From IMG/VR virus record IMGVR_UViG_2547132278_000009: 40,040 nt of DNA; one strand, 5' to 3'. The notes below the pieces were generated by a model, which worked only from the letters and a program-made list of their open reading frames with translations, did not search any database and was not told the DNA's origin. This stretch comes from a virus. Its lineage: Duplodnaviria > Heunggongvirae > Uroviricota > Caudoviricetes. This document shows, one piece after another, positions 2,510 through 33,252 of this stretch (positions within the stretch are counted from its first letter, which is position 1; each line of letters begins with the position of its first letter). A program made the translations under genes and the position numbers.

Positions 2510-3294
2510 GTCTCATCTCCCTTGAGCAAGTCTCTGTGACGCAAGTGATGCGTCGTATGTTTCTGATACATTCCGCCGTAATAAGCACGACAACTTAGGC
2601 GGTCGATCTGGTGATGAAGAATCATTCCATCGCCGATATAAACCGCGCAGTGGTCAGGCATTTTCCCGTATTGGATAAAGAATACGTCCCCACGTTGAGG
2701 CTCTGTTCCGGGCGCAAGACGCACCAATCCCTCGTTACGGTAGTTCTGATCGAGAATGTCGTTATCGCCGGTGTACCACGATGGAATATGCAGGTGTGCG
2801 TTCGGGTTTAGTTCGACGTTAAACTCACGCTTCAAATAGTCCCGACACAACATCCAGCAATCGAATACGCCAAATACATACGGTCTACCCAGGTATGGCA
2901 TTTCGAAACCATCAGGTGTGATCACATTCATCTCGCTAAAATGGAAAGGGGCATCTCCCTCAACATTCTTGCGAATAGCCAGAATCATCCACGGAACTTC
3001 CGTCGCTTCACAGCCTGCACGATCGGCATCAGATGCTTCTGCTGATTCATCAGTATGTGAATGCCAGATTGCGATTACGTCACCTGCATCCTCTGCCGCT
3101 ATAATGTCGTCAACGTGCATTACAAAAGTGTTCTGCGGGTTCTCCGAAACATTTCGCGCTTCCATAAAGCGATATTTGTCGCCATTAGTTCTCACCAGAA
3201 AGCCACACGCTTCATTAGGGTAGCGATTTATGGCGCAGAGATAGATTTGCTGCATAACATCAGAGCCAAGCTCAGGGATTGCTTTATTACCCAT
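2497..3294 (-). CDS. Tail protein K-like (MPN/JAB metalloprotease-like plus NlpC/P60-like domains)
   Basis: ORF 2497..3321; JAMM-like EACGF...HSHTD...S..D and Cys/His NlpC-like region; start probably internal ATG (about 3294 or 3255), overlapping the end of L. Confidence 0.7.
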
Positions 3295-24795: not shown

Positions 24796-25218
24796 ATGAA
24801 ATACTCGCTTCTCCCTCTACTAACGTTACCAGTGTTGATGCTTACCGCGTGCCAATCACGCCCAATATCAATCCATGACGCCAAACCAGCACCGCAGGCC
24901 AAAGTGTTCAAGTATCAAAGCGCAGCGCCAGCTACGTTGGTGGTAATGAGAGACACAGGTTTTGTAGGAGCTGGATGTGATGCTTCCATTTTCATCAACG
25001 GCGAAACTGTCGCAAAACTGGCTACAGGCGAAAAAGCGACTTTCCATTTAAATGCCGGAGAATTAATTGTGGGTGCATCTCTTGAAGGTGCAGGTTTATG
25101 TGCTCTAAACCCCGCTCGTCAAGAGCGAGAAACGACTCTGAAGAATGGAGACACAAAAGCGTTCAGGGTGTTCACCAGCAATTCTGGTGACATCGACATT
25201 CTGCCAACAACTCTGTGA
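24796..25218 (+). CDS. Putative lipoprotein
   Basis: ORF 24754..25218; signal peptide MKYSLLPLLTLPVLMLTAC with lipobox L-T-A-C; preceded by GGGAGA RBS. Confidence 0.55.
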   Translation: MKYSLLPLLTLPVLMLTACQSRPISIHDAKPAPQAKVFKYQSAAPATLVVMRDTGFVGAGCDASIFINGETVAKLATGEKATFHLNAGELIVGASLEGAGLCALNPARQERETTLKNGDTKAFRVFTSNSGDIDILPTTL

Positions 25219-25747
25219 TGACATGACAACCAAAGATATTACCTACGGTATCCAAGCTGAACTCTGGCCGCGAGATTACACTAACGTTGAAAAACTACTG
25301 ATGTTCTGGCGCAGAGAACAAATTCCTGTAAGGGTCACTCTCGAAGATGGCCAGGCGTTTTGCATGTACGTTTATGGCCTCATGCCATCTCGTAACAAAG
25401 TTGACCTTTGCCCAGCCCCTTTTGACAAAGAAAATCGTATAAGGCTCCCACTTGAACGCATTAGTACAATTGAATCAGGTGTGGTTGACAGTATCGCTCA
25501 CGATTTCAAAGGTCGACTAACAGTTCACCCTGATTATGTCGATAATCGGCCATCACGCCGCGATTTTTTTGCAATTTGCAACCAAGCCTACAAAGCAAAC
25601 AAATCTATAAGGGTGTACATGGCGGATGGCCGTGAAATTGAGGGGGTGTCAGCAGGCGCAGATGCTTGTCAGGTTACACTACGTGTCGAGAACGGTAGAA
25701 AAATAGTTGTTTTGTTCGATTGGGTTGAACGAATTTTGCCTTTTTGA
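25214..25747 (+). CDS. Hypothetical protein with apparent internal duplication
   Basis: ORF 25145..25747; likely start MTTKDITYG overlapping the lipoprotein stop; two similar segments (IPVRVTLEDGQAFCMYVYG / IRVYMADGREIEGVSAG). Confidence 0.45.
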   Translation, partial: CDDMTTKDITYGIQAELWPRDYTNVEKLLMFWRREQIPVRVTLEDGQAFCMYVYGLMPSRNKVDLCPAPFDKENRIRLPLERISTIESGVVDSIAHDFKGRLTVHPDYVDNRPSRRDFFAICNQAYKANKSIRVYMADGREIEGVSAGADACQVTLRVENGRKIVVLFDWVERILPF

Positions 25748-25750
25748 GTT

Positions 25751-26059
25751 ATGAAATCGATATTGTTACCACCATTATTTTTACTTTGCTCAGTTGCGGC
25801 AAATGCAATGGACTATAAGCCTGTCATTCAGTCGCTGATGAATGACGTGTGCTCAACGTCTCAGAATGTATCAGTTTGCATGTATCAATTTTCGGCAGCC
25901 GTAAAAGCAGGAAAAGCGATAGGTGAGAATGTGGAACTGTGTAAGAAAGTGGCAAATGAAGAACGGGCAATGTTGGATTGCGAATCTAGCGAGTCATCGG
26001 CACAGTTCGTTGATGCGCTATTTGACACCAATCGTAAGGCTGTAGAGTCTGTTCAATAA
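25751..26059 (+). CDS. Small secreted/periplasmic protein with signal peptide
   Basis: MKSILLPPLFLLCSVAANA signal-like N-terminus; several cysteines; followed by terminator. Confidence 0.5.
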   Translation: MKSILLPPLFLLCSVAANAMDYKPVIQSLMNDVCSTSQNVSVCMYQFSAAVKAGKAIGENVELCKKVANEERAMLDCESSESSAQFVDALFDTNRKAVESVQ

Positions 26060-26071
26060 ATCTATAAGGTT

Positions 26072-26101
26072 AATAACCGGCTAAGTCCGGTTATTATTTT
26101 T
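26072..26101 (+). terminator. Rho-independent terminator
   Basis: AACCGG-CTAAGT-CCGGTT followed by ATTATTTTT. Confidence 0.65.
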
Positions 26102-26249
26102 CACATCACTTCTTTATATCTACAAATCAAATAACCTAAATATATATAAGGTCTAAAGCCGCAATCGATTATTTATTTAGGGAACACCTTCGACGATCTC
26201 GCTTTTATTTCTAGGACTTTCATCCCTGCAAAAAATTTAAAAAAAACAC

Positions 26250-26278
26250 TTGCAATCTTTTTTCGCGTATCGATAATT
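26250..26278 (+). promoter_or_regulatory. Sigma70-like promoter for the AT-rich three-gene operon
   Basis: TTGCAA (-35), 16-17 bp spacer, GATAAT/ATAATT (-10), about 60 nt upstream of the ATG at 26343. Confidence 0.5.
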
Positions 26279-26342
26279 GAACTCGTCGAAAGCGAAGACG
26301 CTAACGACAATAAATTTTAAATTTACATAAGGAAAAATTATC

Positions 26343-26993
26343 ATGGCTAACATTATCATTTCTAAAAAATCCATCATTGAAGCTGCATCTATTGTATCCG
26401 ATGAACTGCGCGAAAAAGCAGATCTGGCAACTCAAACATATAACGAACATTATAAAAATGGTACGCACACTAAAGCAGACAAAGCAAATATGCAAGCTGC
26501 GACCACTAAACTTGCTTACTTCATCAACAACGTCGTAAACGCAGTAGAAGACGAAAAATTATGCTCTGTTTTCTACTATGCGATTAAAGCAAGCAAACAA
26601 GCGCCAGAAGTATTTTTCCGTGATGCAATGACTAATAGTTATTCTCTGGAAAAACTGGTTTATCTGGTTAAATCAATTAAATCTGGTAAATGCGTTTATT
26701 CCATCGCTGATATGTCAGGATCTCGTGTATTCGCTTTAATCGATATGATTAACGACGAGATCGACACGTTCACCAATGGCGCTGTTTTCGATTTAATGAA
26801 TGAAGCTAAAAAAGCGTGTGAAATTAAATTGGACGCTGGCTATACTCAAGCCAACCAGTTGATCAATCTTTGCGAACGTCTTGGACTTGTTGAAAAAGTC
26901 AAAGGAGCTGGGAGCGCGAAAGCTGGTACTCAGCAATATCGCTTCATTAAAAATGATTTCTACAATTATTTAGCTGATGCTTTCAAAGCGTAA
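26343..26993 (+). CDS. Hypothetical protein (216 aa), first gene of AT-rich operon
   Basis: ORF with AT-rich codon usage unlike flanking phage genes; GGAAAAA RBS-like; no motif recognised. Confidence 0.6.
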   Translation: MANIIISKKSIIEAASIVSDELREKADLATQTYNEHYKNGTHTKADKANMQAATTKLAYFINNVVNAVEDEKLCSVFYYAIKASKQAPEVFFRDAMTNSYSLEKLVYLVKSIKSGKCVYSIADMSGSRVFALIDMINDEIDTFTNGAVFDLMNEAKKACEIKLDAGYTQANQLINLCERLGLVEKVKGAGSAKAGTQQYRFIKNDFYNYLADAFKA

Positions 26994-27005
26994 TTAATGG
27001 AATCA

Positions 27006-27024
27006 AGCGCCCACTATGGGCGCT
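27006..27024 (+). other. Intra-operon stem-loop AGCGCCCA-CTA-TGGGCGCT (copy 1)
   Basis: Exact copy of the hairpin also found at 27503-27521; here followed by an AGGAG RBS rather than a T-run. Confidence 0.55.
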
Positions 27025-27041
27025 TTAAAGGAGCTTTAAAA

Positions 27042-27245
27042 ATGGTCAGCTATGACAAGATCCGCGCGGAATATCGCGCAAAGTATCGCGCTTATAAACT
27101 GGAATTAATCGATGATTTAATCGCGCAACGCGACCAATTAAATTTTACGTTTTCTGATTTGCTTAACAGCAAGCGAGATTGCAAGCGCAAACGTGAATAC
27201 TTACGTTTAAGCGCATTAATCGGAAAACTTCAAAATTCTATTTAA
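27042..27245 (+). CDS. Hypothetical small basic protein (67 aa)
   Basis: ORF 26997..27245; start at 27042 preferred because of AAAGGAG RBS 8 nt upstream; rich in K/R. Confidence 0.5.
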   Translation: MVSYDKIRAEYRAKYRAYKLELIDDLIAQRDQLNFTFSDLLNSKRDCKRKREYLRLSALIGKLQNSI

Positions 27246-27266
27246 TTTTTTTTAAGGAGCTTAATC

Positions 27267-27497
27267 ATGTTTGTTCTTATCGCTGGCGTTAACGTCCATA
27301 ATGAATATTATGTTAATCGCATCGCTGGGATCGCTGGTTACGCTGGGCGCGCAGTCGAGCTTATAGATGAAACGACGCGCAAAATTGACTTATTGAGCGA
27401 CCAGGAGCGAAAAAAAGCAGACGTGAACGACGCTGATATATTTTTAATGCTAAAAGCGTTTGTAGAAATGGGATTTAAAATCAGTTTACACAAATAA
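27267..27497 (+). CDS. Hypothetical small protein (76 aa)
   Basis: ORF preceded by TAAGGAGC RBS, followed by two terminators. Confidence 0.5.
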   Translation: MFVLIAGVNVHNEYYVNRIAGIAGYAGRAVELIDETTRKIDLLSDQERKKADVNDADIFLMLKAFVEMGFKISLHK

Positions 27498-27502
27498 AAT
27501 CG

Positions 27503-27530
27503 AGCGCCCACTATGGGCGCTTTTTTCGTT
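27503..27530 (+). terminator. Rho-independent terminator (hairpin copy 2 plus T6)
   Basis: AGCGCCCA-CTA-TGGGCGCT followed by TTTTTTCG. Confidence 0.7.
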
Positions 27531-27547
27531 TCCAATACTCCCACCAT

Positions 27548-27577
27548 AACGCGCCAATGATGGCGCGTTTTTTATTG
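27548..27577 (+). terminator. Second tandem rho-independent terminator
   Basis: GCGCCA-ATGATG-GCGCG followed by TTTTTTATT. Confidence 0.6.
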
Positions 27578-27986
27578 TCTTTGATTCACTCCAACAACAT
27601 AAAAACAAGCGCCAAAATAACGCCATAGACGCACTTTTATATCCTTACCAGTACATACCCATTACTTAACACATTAACGCGCTTAAAACGCGTTATATTG
27701 CGCTATAGCGCATAATTAATCATTGGCTTTTAGTCTTGCTATGTGATCCGCGTTTAATTGTCGGCGCGGATCGGCATTTTGTTTTGTTCCGTATCCGCTC
27801 GCGTATTATGTGCGCGTGATTTTCACATAATCACACCACTTAATCACGTATGTGATTATGCTACGAAAGAAATCTGGATGTCTCAGGCGACGAAAGTCAT
27901 CATAATTTTCCCCGCTCACCTGTCCGACAACCGCTGGTTGGATTCCACCAGCTTCCCGATGTTTTTTCTACATAAAGGCGAATGCA

Positions 27987-28099
27987 GCCGTTTCCCGAAA
28001 AAATCCTGGCCGTTTCCCGTCGGCTCATGAATACGTTCCTCGCCGTTTCTGAAAATTTCCCTGCGGCAGCTGGTGTCTATAGAGAAAGGGCCGTTTCTG
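27987..28099. repeat. Iteron-like direct repeat array A (GCCGTTTCC/GCCGTTTCTG, 4 copies)
   Basis: GCCGTTTCCC at 27987 and 28009 (22 bp apart), GCCGTTTCTG at 28042 and 28090. Confidence 0.6.
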
Positions 28100-28112
28100 G
28101 CCCTCTTCTCAG

Positions 28113-28595
28113 TTACACGCCATCAAGGATGTGGATGCGGTTGCTTGCGTATACATTCAGCATAAAGTTAGCGCAAAACAGTTTCCATGTATCAACGCCA
28201 GCGGCATACGTAATGTTTTTGCATTTTATTGCATTGTTGGCGATCCGCATCCCCTGTGATACTGCTTCATCGTCGGAAAATTTGAACGACGATTGAGTTT
28301 TAATCCAGACAGAAATCTGCGTAGCGAACTCAATCAGCTTGGACTGGCAGAATCGCCCGGAGCGCACCGGAAAGACGAACGTTCCGAATCCAGAATTTAC
28401 CACATACGCTTTCTCAAATACCCGCGAGTAACGACGATTGCCAATGATGTCGCGTGCAATAATGCATTTTTCTTGTGCTGACAGTTCTACCGTCTCATTG
28501 TCGCGCCATGCACCAAGTACTCGTTTTTCAATGTCAGAGAACGTTACAGCGATATTGCCATGTGCGGGTGCGTTTACAGTAGCGATAAAATTCAT
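28113..28595 (-). CDS. Hypothetical protein (160 aa)
   Basis: ORF with GGAAT RBS-like and the palindromic operator 20-40 bp upstream; no motif recognised. Confidence 0.5.
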   Translation of the reverse strand: MNFIATVNAPAHGNIAVTFSDIEKRVLGAWRDNETVELSAQEKCIIARDIIGNRRYSRVFEKAYVVNSGFGTFVFPVRSGRFCQSKLIEFATQISVWIKTQSSFKFSDDEAVSQGMRIANNAIKCKNITYAAGVDTWKLFCANFMLNVYASNRIHILDGV

Positions 28596-28612
28596 GATTA
28601 ATTCCTTATCGT

Positions 28613-28632
28613 AAATAACAAATTGTTTTCTT
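28613..28632 (-). promoter_or_regulatory. Palindromic operator copy (AACAAATTGTT core) upstream of the 160-aa gene
   Basis: AATAACAAATTGTTTTCTTG read directly; flanking TTAATTAACACCAACAAG block is shared with the site at 31143. Confidence 0.45.
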
Positions 28633-28797
28633 GTTGGTGTTAATTATCGTTGTACGAATAAGGCGTCAAAGTGGAAAGTTGCGGTAGCCGGACGGGAACA
28701 GGTGGGTTTGTCGGTTGCCTGGAGGTAAGAGGTTGGTGTTATTAGCCTGAGGGAAACAGGATGGTCATTTAAGACCACCAATGCTGGTGGCCTTAAT

Positions 28798-28943
28798 AAT
28801 TATCGCACGATTACGCTAAGGATCTTTTCCTCAACTGATTTGTTGTTGCGACTAAACTGCCTTGCGTATCTGATGACAGAAGAGGCGTTTTGCTTTCTGA
28901 CCATCTCGGCTCTTTCCTTCAGGCGTTTCTTGAAATCGCCCAT
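28798..28943 (-). CDS. Possible small basic protein (48 aa), below the ORF-track cutoff
   Basis: Hand translation MGDFKKRLKERAEMVRKQNASSVIRYARQFSRNNKSVEEKILSVIVR; ATG 2 nt after the upstream stop with GGTGG upstream. Confidence 0.3.
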
Positions 28944-28945
28944 AT

Positions 28946-29320
28946 TTACCACCAGGCGCAGAAGGTCAGTCTGTTATTGTGAAAGTCGTGGTTCTTAATC
29001 AGGTCTTCCACAAGCTCTTTCAACTGCCCCACATCATGCCAGTAACCTTCATCGTACTCCTGACTGCCGAAGAAAAAACCTTCCCGGGTAGGCAAGTACT
29101 CTTCGCAATTACTTTCGTTTATGTGCATCAAATGAGCCTTCAGAAAACAAATGTCATTCATCGTTAATTCTAAAAGCTCACAATTTTCGACTTCACCTAC
29201 GTTGCGCTCCATCCACCCAACGAGCGCATTGAACTTACGGAAGTAAGCAACCTGCTTTCTGGATGCCTCGTTATTCAGATCGTTTTTAGGCTGTGTCTCG
29301 ATATAGATATCAAGTCCCAT
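28946..29320 (-). CDS. Hypothetical acidic protein (about 124 aa)
   Basis: ORF 28946..29362; probable start MGLDIYIETQ; operator copy and hairpin upstream. Confidence 0.5.
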   Translation of the reverse strand: MGLDIYIETQPKNDLNNEASRKQVAYFRKFNALVGWMERNVGEVENCELLELTMNDICFLKAHLMHINESNCEEYLPTREGFFFGSQEYDEGYWHDVGQLKELVEDLIKNHDFHNNRLTFCAWW

Positions 29321-31699: not shown

Positions 31700-32600
31700 C
31701 ACCCCTCCTTCCCTCCCCACTTATACATACCTGGCTTCTTCGCTATACATGTTGTGTTTTATCTGTCTCAACCTCTCTATAGGCGTTAATGCTCACTCCT
31801 TCCAGAATGTTCTATACGGCGACTATTTCTGTTGGTGAATTGGGTGTGTTGTTTTCTCTGTCGGTGTATGTGGTTTCGTTCGTTTTGCGGTGGTTCTTCT
31901 ATGGGGTGTTCTCGTCGTTTTGGTGATTGTTCTTCTCCGTGTATGGAGTAATGGCAGGTGGGCGATTGCTTTCGTTATTGTGTTTGAGTTGTTTGTCTGG
32001 AGTGTGTGAAAGGCTTTTGTAGTTATTCGTGTATTGGGTAATGGCGTTTCCCGTGATTGTTATGTTTCGTGTCTTTTGGGATTGAGAGAAACCTTGCGGT
32101 TATAGGCTTCGTTGGGTTTTCAGTGATTCTGGTGTTTCTTCGCTGTTTGGGGAATGGCGTGTCGTGGGTATTGCGCGTATGAATGTTTTCGGATTGCCTG
32201 TGAAAGTTAGGTTGGCTGTCCGGTAGCCTGGGGAGAAGAGGTGGGTCTTTTCGGTAGCCTGCCATAAAGAGGTTGGTTGTTTTTGGGAATGGCATTTGTG
32301 TTATTTAGTTGTTTTGTTATGCCTGAAAATAAGTTGTTTATATGGTTGTGTAACGCAACGGGAGCGATTTTGAGCGTGTGTTTTTGTTGGTAGTGTGTTG
32401 GGTCGTCTGTGGTGAAAATTGGACGCTGTGGCGCTGTCTGCTGCGTAGAATTACGGGTATAAGAAGTGATGTGTGAAAACGTCAATTTTTTAGACCAAAT
32501 CGGGTGAAAGCGTTGATGTTTCGTTGATCTGTTATTCAGTTGTTTTCTTGATTGTATAAACAACTATAACTTATTGATATTTAAGGATGTGATTGCGGGT
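31700..32600. other. About 0.9 kb ORF-free tract with extreme G+T richness on the plus strand
   Basis: Long runs of G/T-only words; recurring GG(G/T)AATGGC units near 31951, 32037, 32143, 32287; only low-complexity ORFs. Confidence 0.6.
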
Positions 32601-32682
32601 ATGGAAAGGGAGTAGTGGCGATCAACGGATTCTTATAGAAAAGAATCAAATTGTGACCGCCATTATCAATGAGTTGCAACCG

Positions 32683-33252
32683 TTAGTTGTTCAGATAAAC
32701 ATTTGGAACACGGACGTAGAAGTTCCTGTCGCCGGTAAGTTCCAGAGTAATGTTAATGTCATTACCATTGTCTAGTGTAGCCGTTGCTCTATAGAACTTA
32801 TCCGTCACCTTGTCCTCTATTGTCACCTTCATACATTTTGGTGCAGTCGAACCGTTATTCTCTTTCAGAATAGTTGTCACGAGAGGGCAGGCTGCTTCTT
32901 CAAGAGCAACCTCGTCCTTGTGTGGGATGCCGATGAAGATAATCCAAGCCAGCGACGCAACGATTATGATAAATGGCACTCTGCTGCCTTTTGTAATAGT
33001 CGCGCGCTTCCAGAGATAGACAGGCAGGAGGAATACCCCCCATAGAATTGAAGGTGGTTCACAGCCAGACTCCGATAGAGCCATTCTGTCAGCTACTAAC
33101 AAACCGATGGTAGTTACACCCCCAATTATAATAGCGTAATTGGTATACTCTTCCGGCGATACTCCAAAGAAGAAAGGCATGAACGCTAGAATCCACGCAT
33201 AAATGTTATTCAGAGGTTTTGTTTGTTGGTTCTGGGTTTCCATCACATCCAT
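32683..33252 (-). CDS. Membrane protein (about 3-4 predicted transmembrane helices plus C-terminal soluble domain)
   Basis: 189 aa; hydrophobic segments IYAWILAFMPFFFG, AIIIGGVTTIGLLV, ILWGVFLLPVYLW, FIIIVASLAWIIFIGI. Confidence 0.55.
   Translation of the reverse strand: MDVMETQNQQTKPLNNIYAWILAFMPFFFGVSPEEYTNYAIIIGGVTTIGLLVADRMALSESGCEPPSILWGVFLLPVYLWKRATITKGSRVPFIIIVASLAWIIFIGIPHKDEVALEEAACPLVTTILKENNGSTAPKCMKVTIEDKVTDKFYRATATLDNGNDINITLELTGDRNFYVRVPNVYLNN

Follow-up and report, generated by a model that had tools for sequence, protein, structure and literature searches.

The window analysed here is a stretch of 40,040 nucleotides (IMG/VR record IMGVR_UViG_2547132278_000009) of an SSU5-type (SSU5-like) phage-plasmid. 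It carries an operon of three genes, referred to as genes 1 to 3, and a short hairpin (AGCGCCCACTATGGGCGCT) present in two identical copies, one behind gene 1 and one behind gene 3 (Table 1). This hairpin, its conservation in related elements and its possible part in the expression and exchange of the small genes are the subject of this study. The region from 26000 to 28000 is 97% identical to Escherichia phage CMS-2020a and 92–96% identical to PhiR41_1 and Cyrano; Salmonella phage SSU5 and Klebsiella phage-plasmids match parts of this region only (81–85% identity). The operon stretch is AT-rich, with 36% G+C at positions 26001 to 27000 compared to about 45–50% elsewhere in the window.

Table 1. 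Features of the operon and its surroundings (positions within the window)
Feature	Position	Strand	Remarks
FljA-family gene	25145–25747	+	just upstream of the operon's neighbour
Candidate sigma-70-like promoter of the operon	26250–26277	+	TTGCAA, 16 nt, GATAAT; consensus scan
Gene 1	26343–26993	+	216 aa; constant first gene of the operon; stop codon 26991–26993; phrog_1513
Hairpin copy 1 (internal)	27006–27024	+	starts 12 nt past the gene-1 stop; tail TTAAAGGAG
Shine-Dalgarno sequence of gene 2	27028–27033	+	AAGGAG; fills the spot of the terminator's T-run
Gene 2	27042–27245	+	67 aa; optional cargo, present or absent among relatives; phrog_6145
T8 run and Shine-Dalgarno sequence of gene 3	27246–27259	+	AAGGAG; between gene-2 stop codon and gene 3
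Gene 3	27267–27497	+	76 aa; optional cargo; stop codon 27495–27497; phrog_1585 (function unknown)
Hairpin copy 2 with T-run	27503–27526	+	starts 5 nt past the gene-3 stop; tail TTTTTCGTTT
T2	27548–27577	+	different stem, AACGCGCCA atga TGGCGCGTT, with T-rich tail; terminator scan
Convergent gene	28113–28595		phrog_1641

Two copies of one hairpin in a three-gene operon

A sequence-only reading of the window had described an identical 19-bp hairpin with an 8-bp stem and a 3-nt loop that occurs twice within the operon. Both copies were found as exact matches on the plus strand (27006–27024 and 27503–27521), and stem and loop are as described, six of the pairs being G-C. Matches on the minus strand are the same palindromes with the loop reversed. 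That such a repeat is very unlikely to arise by chance was confirmed with 100 dinucleotide-preserving shuffles of the window, none of which gave a match even when up to 3 mismatches were allowed. The exact repeat comprises 21 nt, as it takes in two following T, and at 90% identity it reaches 31 nt (AATGGAATCAAGCGCCCACTATGGGCGCTTT versus AATAAAATCGAGCGCCCACTATGGGCGCTTT). The hairpin folds with −13.6 kcal/mol (z = −4.7 compared to shuffled sequences), which holds for both copies. No further copy is found in the 40-kb window.

Copy 1 lies between genes 1 and 2 and is followed by the ribosome-binding site and ATG (27042) of gene 2, in agreement with the earlier description. The T6 reported behind copy 2 is present (27521–27526), but its first T is the last base of the stem, so that five T extend beyond the 19-mer, followed by CGTTT. 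Between genes 2 and 3 of the window there is no hairpin. Copy 2 is followed after 27 nt by a second hairpin with a different stem, T2 (AACGCGCCAatgaTGGCGCGTT, 27548–27569, then TTTTATTG), which folds with −14.8 kcal/mol and, by its features, is a predicted back-up terminator of the operon (terminator index +22.0, see below). In distant clades, the T2 position holds a further tandem copy of the hairpin.

Other functions of the palindrome were considered. The half-site GCGCCCA occurs 7 times across the window compared to 4.3 times expected, and four of the seven are inside the hairpins themselves; it is not enriched, which counts against a palindromic operator. Searches against Rfam 15 (25000–29000 and 27400–27700) gave nothing at the gathering score. 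A match to the small RNA Hrs1 on the minus strand (27510–27576, from T2 to copy 2) reached 32 bits versus a gathering score of 56.4 and was judged meaningless because T2, read in reverse complement with its A-run, accounts for the alignment; a match to isrK was dismissed as noise. No description of this hairpin in SSU5-like elements was found in the literature.

The candidate promoter of the operon is preceded by an A/T-rich tract, and its position and hexamers are kept in all clades, including one in which gene 1 is only 49% identical to that of the window. The consensus scan of the window gave no promoter-like site between copy 1 and gene 2 or gene 3. Since these two genes lack a promoter-like site of their own and only 17 nt separate copy 1 from the ATG of gene 2, they should be transcribable only by read-through of copy 1.

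The only transcriptome at hand is that of Cyrano in E. coli LF82 (PMC9928086, Table 1 and S1 Table), where CYRAN_113 and CYRAN_112 are the homologues of gene 1 and gene 3, respectively. Neither is on the list of genes expressed 5-fold over background in lysogeny, and both are at the floor of the FPKM (fragments per kilobase per million reads) values. In LB, in culture medium and at the early stage in macrophages no expression of the operon is seen, and it is thus off in the plasmid state. After 6 h in macrophages, the gene-1 signal is roughly twice that of gene 3 by hand conversion of log2(FPKM+5) values, at counts too low to interpret. Several blocks upstream of the operon (about 26135–26310) are conserved even in the clade with 49% gene-1 identity, namely TTATTTAGGGAACACCTTC, TTATTTCTAGGACTTT, the −35 and −10 hexamers, the leader CGAAAGCGAAGACGCTAACGA and a repeated ATATAAGG motif. 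They suggest a tight regulation of the operon, in line with its silence in Cyrano lysogens.

Conservation of the stem and the tails of internal and terminal copies

Two sets of loci were compared. Set 1 was obtained by scanning viral contigs with a pattern of fixed stem and free loop (120 loci) and was therefore chosen by the stem itself. To offset this selection, set 2 was gathered from gene-1 loci independent of the hairpin (92 complete loci, 73 distinct downstream sequences). About two thirds of set 1 are SSU5-like with gene 1 adjoining the hairpin. About 40 loci without gene 1 belong to a few unrelated phage families, which use the same stem as a terminator; a spread of the element to these families was rejected in favour of convergent use of a generic GC-rich stem. 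The hairpin was found in 72 of the 73 distinct sequences of set 2, mostly 10–20 nt past gene 1. In the exception (L215) it is present with a 1-nt insertion in the loop, and a single locus (L183) lacks the first copy only.

The presence of the hairpin holds in clades in which gene 1 is only 61% and 49% identical to that of the window. In the latter clade, units of hairpin and T-run are arrayed in tandem behind gene 1 at a period of 44 nt. The first unit of the array sometimes has a related stem (AGCGCCAgaaaTGGCGCT), replaced by the canonical one in L219 and L220. All seven annotated relatives have the hairpin pair with the same stems, but the spacing depends on the genes enclosed (gene 2 alone, gene 3 alone or both) and is 247, 271 or 497 nt. 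In a complete relative of 107.6 kb the hairpin is confined to this locus, again with two copies, and the idea of a standard terminator used throughout the genome was rejected on this ground.

Stem entropy is 0.02–0.11 bits per site in internal and terminal copies alike, compared to 0.6–1.2 in the flanks and about 0.9 in the loops. Changes in the stem are found at the outermost pair only, and one of them is a compensated change from A-T to G-C. Since relatives share the stems while the loops of their two copies often differ, the exact identity of the two copies in the window is partly incidental.

As the stem is nearly invariant and flanks and loops vary, the internal copy is maintained and not a decaying scar. 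Direct repeats around inserted DNA are a common by-product of recombination, and the flanks of the two copies share additional similarity (31 nt at 90%), as a functionless remnant of duplication or insertion might. Nevertheless, such an origin without function is barely credible: internal and terminal stems are equally invariant in clades whose flanks have diverged freely, the hairpin is present in nearly all distinct sequences of set 2, and a neutral stem of 16 nt would have changed at this divergence.

The stem of an ordinary terminator upstream of the operon is retained in close relatives and differs in distant clades. The hairpin studied here is thus held more tightly than this typical neighbour. 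Reuse of an identical terminator stem is not unique to the locus, however, since a complete close relative (L221, CP053388.1) has a second perfect terminator-like stem (AAGGCGTCC...GGACGCCTT) at 3250, 4388 and 6722, in each case just downstream of a different minus-strand gene. This stem is not found as a hairpin in the window.

The invariance of the stem raises the question of whether the hairpin, as RNA or as a DNA palindrome, is the specific site of a phage-plasmid protein that controls translation, stability or anti-termination within the operon, its behaviour as a terminator being secondary. Candidates for such a protein are the product of gene 1 and the FljA-family protein encoded upstream (PF03614, E = 2.5e-84); FljA acts on mRNA. 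The hairpin is always coupled to gene 1, no other site exists in the complete relative, and the stem is invariant across all clades, while the neighbouring terminator changes its own in the distant ones. The structure model of the gene-1 product has a C-terminal winged-helix-like domain, although its fold matches are weak and generic (E ≥ 0.017, template modelling score (TM) about 0.3). Half-sites are not enriched in the window, and the loop is free to vary and to invert, so that only the stem could be recognised. Moreover, the GC-rich stem, the T-run and the place after stop codons are fully covered by a terminator, and unrelated phage families use the same stem as such. A protein site is therefore considered unlikely. 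The narrower form, in which the stem would be a sequence-specific recognition element (an RNA or single-stranded DNA hairpin) for, most economically, the gene-1 product, is slightly less likely still. If it were true, the operon would be a self-contained module whose protein marks the operon's own hairpins, to tune read-through or to promote the exchange of small genes.

Both copies have the GC-rich stem-loop of intrinsic terminators, whereas the T-tract is found at copy 2 and not at copy 1. Likewise, copy 2 lies at the 3′ end of the transcription unit, directly behind the last stop codon of the operon, and copy 1 is intercistronic. The same difference is seen among the relatives. Terminal copies have 5–7 T in the first 8 nt past the stem in 71 of 72 cases, compared to a mean of 3.5 T in internal copies (Mann-Whitney p = 4e-19). 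On a rough terminator index of the d'Aubenton-Carafa type, 82 of 88 terminal copies score above 0 (median +28.9), as opposed to 7 of 77 internal ones (median −16.1); the values for copy 2 and copy 1 of the window are +28.9 and −16.1, respectively. Internal copies with an index above 0 should mostly be members of tandem arrays, which keep full T-runs. A terminator consensus scan of the window lists copy 2 and T2 and omits copy 1. The tails of internal copies (TTAAAGGAG, AGTTTTAAGG, ATTTTTAAGG and similar) run straight into the next Shine-Dalgarno sequence, and the terminal tail TTTTTCGTTT is kept in nearly all relatives.

By its features, copy 2 is most likely the intrinsic terminator that ends the transcript of the operon. 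Copy 1 most likely acts as a leaky terminator (attenuator), as a 3′ stabiliser of the gene-1 mRNA or as both. The earlier suggestion that the first copy is an attenuator or processing site setting expression ratios within the operon fits all observations and appears plausible.

It is also conceivable that the internal copy has a purely post-transcriptional role, either as a barrier against 3′ exonucleases for the gene-1 segment after endonucleolytic cleavage or as a 5′ protector of the gene-2/gene-3 segment. Stabilising hairpins between cistrons are well known from other operons such as malEFG and puf. The internal copy is intercistronic, conserved, stable (−13.6 kcal/mol) and almost devoid of a T-run (index −16). 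In SSU5-type relatives, however, it is followed by A and T5 or by AG and T4, from which a degree of termination would be expected. An RNase cleavage site was not identified, and stabilisation overlaps with attenuation instead of excluding it. A purely post-transcriptional role is accordingly rated as improbable.

Cargo layouts and break-points

The stretch between gene 1 and the last hairpin varies widely among the relatives. Gene 1 is followed by the hairpin and its T-run only in 10 loci. A single gene flanked by two hairpins is gene 2 in 25 loci, gene 3 in 16 and a gene-3 variant in 5. Both genes between two hairpins, as in the window, are found in 16 loci, and gene 2 together with a gene-3 variant in 3. 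In 2 loci a gene-3 variant and gene 3 are each followed by a hairpin, which results in three copies, while in 4–5 loci a divergent gene 2 lies between the first hairpin and two subsequent ones. Tandem hairpins 44–47 nt apart were also observed. In all loci collected, the open reading frames between hairpins belong to two protein families only, one gene-2-like and one gene-3-like. In some relatives, gene 3 is replaced by divergent alleles with 45–51% identity. A search of other genomes for the hairpin next to different cargo, which the sequence-only reading had proposed, thus revealed different layouts (none, gene 2, gene 3 or both) drawn from these two families.

Backbones with 96–99% identical gene-1 DNA bear different cargo, and pairwise alignments locate the differences. 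L130 and L182 differ by exactly one unit of hairpin plus gene 2. L131 has gene 2 and L174 a gene-3 variant; the two match at about 98% as far as the first hairpin, are unrelated beyond it and match at this level again from about 4 nt ahead of the last one. L142 and L143 differ by a swap of the gene-3 allele, bounded on the left by the shared ribosome-binding site and gene start and on the right by the hairpin. From these breaks in similarity it follows that the hairpins are joints of deletion and exchange, copy 1 on the left and copy 2 on the right, and the left joint can also be the conserved ribosome-binding region. The ribosome-binding regions of gene 2 and gene 3 in the window are alike (TTTAAAGGAGCTT versus TTTTAAGGAGCTT). 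The proposal that the two copies could be recombination targets bounding the last two genes was supported by comparison of more than 150 related loci, in that near-identical backbones differ in the sequence enclosed by the copies and cease to be similar at the hairpins. It did not hold for the two genes as one unit, since gene 2 and gene 3 come and go independently.

The explanation favoured here, to which a probability of about 0.7 is assigned, is that the terminator stem of gene 1 has been duplicated, that the inner copy serves as attenuator or stabiliser and that the copies are the joints at which cargo genes are lost or exchanged. The 19-bp palindrome would be the stem-loop of a Rho-independent terminator belonging to gene 1 in a deeply conserved SSU5-type operon. 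In its simplest form, the locus consists of gene 1, the hairpin with its T-run and a second terminator, either T2 or further tandem hairpins. One or two small genes (gene-2-like or gene-3-like), where present, lie between two hairpin copies. The last copy keeps its T-run and would end the transcript together with T2. At the internal copy, the T-run is replaced by the ribosome-binding site of the next gene, which the polymerase has to reach by read-through if gene 2 and gene 3 are to be expressed. The internal copy, acting as attenuator, 3′ stabiliser or both, would favour the product of gene 1 over those of gene 2 and gene 3. The copies, as direct repeats of 19–31 nt, are in addition the sites at which a unit of hairpin plus gene was lost or cargo exchanged among related genomes, probably by short-homology recombination or, in the case of deletions, by replication slippage. 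Anatomy, conservation, the contrast between the tails and the break-points are observed directly, whereas the efficiencies of termination, the ratio of expression and the route of recombination are inferred.

Several points weigh against this explanation. The terminator index is only approximate. Hairpins do not stand at every gene boundary, as the junction of genes 2 and 3 in the window shows. With only two cargo families, part of the pattern could be the result of repeated deletions from an ancestral three-gene operon. Direct repeats of 19–31 nt are short for RecA-dependent recombination, and a pathway via a phage single-strand annealing protein or via slippage is an assumption. The invariance of the stem down to 49% gene-1 identity exceeds what a terminator needs and could point to a specific binding factor. 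Finally, the transcriptome gives the operon at the detection floor, so that termination and read-through at both copies are deduced from sequence features.

The break-points might also be explained by a dedicated, hairpin-directed site-specific recombination, as known for attC sites or the ends of IS200/IS605 elements, with the small genes as mobile cassettes. Replacements and deletions are cleanly bounded by hairpins, three hairpins bound two cassettes in some genomes, and a hairpin follows each cargo gene within 4–8 nt. Against this, the cargo stems from two protein families only and the hairpin is found at one locus alone in the complete genome. The perfect 8-bp stem has neither the extrahelical bases nor the length or core sites of attC, and some left break-points fall in the ribosome-binding site and gene start (L142 versus L143), as homologous exchange predicts. 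No recombinase family was matched among the six flanking genes scanned. Cassette mobility of this kind is very unlikely; nothing suggests a dedicated recombinase, and short-homology recombination or slippage between the repeats is enough.

Comparison with known systems and inversion of the loop

The locus shares features with several known systems. As with intrinsic terminators in general, a GC-rich perfect stem-loop is located right after a stop codon, with a T-run and a back-up terminator in the case of copy 2. Copy 1, the same hairpin with a weakened T-run between cistrons, corresponds to leaky intra-operon terminators, a classic layout for unequal expression. Ordinary terminators drift, however, as does the one upstream of the operon, whereas the stem studied here is reused two to three times and invariant down to 49% gene-1 identity.

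Integron attC sites are imperfect palindromes of 57–141 nt with extrahelical bases and conserved core sites, which are recombined by the integron integrase and carry very diverse cargo. The arrangement described here is similar in that promoterless small genes each carry a hairpin-forming site at their 3′ end and the number of cassettes varies. It differs in that the element is a perfect 19-nt hairpin without bulges and the cargo comprises two families. Identity with attC was rejected on the short and perfect hairpin and the limited cargo, and an integron-like reading in general also on the lack of a recombinase match in the six flanking genes.

Lambdoid phages reportedly have morons and conserved boundary ("linker") sequences. 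Morons possess their own promoter and are expressed from the prophage. Common to both cases are small accessory genes that end in a terminator between conserved genes, and short boundary sequences that act as crossover points. The cargo here is promoterless and belongs to an operon that is silent in lysogens (PMC9928086, Table 1 and S1 Table). Identity with morons was rejected, as there is no promoter before gene 2 or gene 3 and expression in lysogens is at the FPKM floor.

A further parallel may be drawn to the PeSLs (promoter-early stem-loops) of T4-type phages, which combine a strong sigma-70 promoter with a stem-loop and number about 50 in each genome, the majority of them located in hyperplastic regions (Arbiol et al. 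2010, PMC2839356); a further study of PeSLs is that of Comeau et al. 2014 (PMC4122927). In both cases a short conserved motif with a terminator or attenuator stem-loop flanks small genes of unknown function, and break-points of insertions, deletions or replacements between close relatives coincide with the motif (here L130/L182, L131/L174 and L142/L143). The present hairpin differs in four respects. No promoter-like site is located at or after either copy, two or three copies are found at a single locus instead of many dispersed ones, the cargo is limited to two protein families, and the host is a phage-plasmid and not a T4-type myovirus. The hairpin was not regarded as a PeSL, being without promoter and not dispersed.

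The locus is a tidy instance of the known plasticity of phage genomes, and the mechanism is not new. It offers a clean, sequence-resolved example of gain, loss and swap of small accessory genes in a family of phage-plasmids found widely among Enterobacterales (E. coli, Salmonella, Klebsiella, Enterobacter and Yersinia pestis). Copies of a terminator hairpin form the joints, and this element probably also determines the expression ratios within the operon. The idea of a regulatory motif as recombination linker, known from the PeSLs of T4-type phages, is thereby extended to phage-plasmids in a terminator-only form.

A further feature of the hairpin is the inversion of its loop. The most common variant of either copy is an exact inversion from CTA to TAG (18 of 145 copies in distinct sequences), and the pairs CAA/TTG and TCA/TGA were also seen. 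The loop of T2 is inverted in a similar manner (ATGA/TCAT and TTGT/ACAA). Inversions were found among near-identical genomes (L004, L007, L010, L081, L143 and others), with at least five independent flips within clusters of at least 98% gene-1 identity. In L010, both copies share a derived loop, TCA and TGA, which speaks for exchange between copies, as does the replaced first stem of L219 and L220. The hairpins of one unrelated phage family show the same kind of inversion (AAA/TTT).

Inversion of the loop and homogenisation of the stem arms are known outcomes of template switching in inverted repeats (PMC8794818; PMC8604942). The invariant, perfect stems and often inverted loops observed here fit template-switch errors during replication of the palindromes together with exchange between the copies. 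As in these studies, the loop is inverted exactly and the stems remain perfect; the published cases concern rRNA and yeast genes, whereas here the inversion is recurrent in terminator hairpins of near-identical phage-plasmids. Such inversions can mislead divergence estimates based on alignments, as one event reads as three "substitutions".

Gene products and surrounding region

Members of the gene-1 family are annotated only as "hypothetical protein" in SSU5-like elements across Enterobacterales (phrog_1513, function unknown), and a homologue is also encoded on a Yersinia pestis contig (L129). The AlphaFold2 model of the gene-1 product (mean predicted local distance difference test score 78) has a predicted helical N-terminal part in addition to the winged-helix-like domain; the weak matches to this domain mentioned above were obtained with Foldseek against the PDB. 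Pfam searches gave no family for gene 1, and all matches of genes 2 and 3 were sub-threshold. Neither the three genes nor their neighbours were assigned to a defence-system family by PADLOC, and PHROGs provided no informative assignment for any of the three. The label of phrog_6145 as CorA/MIT metal transporter is implausible for gene 2 at 67 aa.

The T run at 27246–27253, T8 in the window, is T7 or T8 in relatives. Relatives with three hairpins have the middle hairpin at this position, and it may be speculated that the run is a remnant of a lost middle terminator. Within gene 3, short tandem DNA repeats at 27312–27352 (ATCGCTGG...) encode IAGIAGYAG, and a copy of the 3′ half-site of the hairpin, TGGGCGC, is present at 27344–27350. 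This is probably coincidental.

Upstream, the FljA-family gene ("repressor of phase-1 flagellin") has annotated counterparts in the same place in SSU5, Cyrano and pJN2-26; its product has a weak Hfq/Sm-like match at residues 146–188. Downstream of copy 2, T2 is followed by about 580 nt without a conserved open reading frame and then by the convergent gene. This stretch (27530–28110) has a high density of GC-rich palindromes and terminator-like hairpins, such as those at 27673–27716, 27744–27773 and 27800–27816. Farther downstream, the segment from 32001 to 33000 has an anomalous composition, with a GC skew of +0.29 and an AT skew of −0.22, compared to about −0.05 elsewhere.

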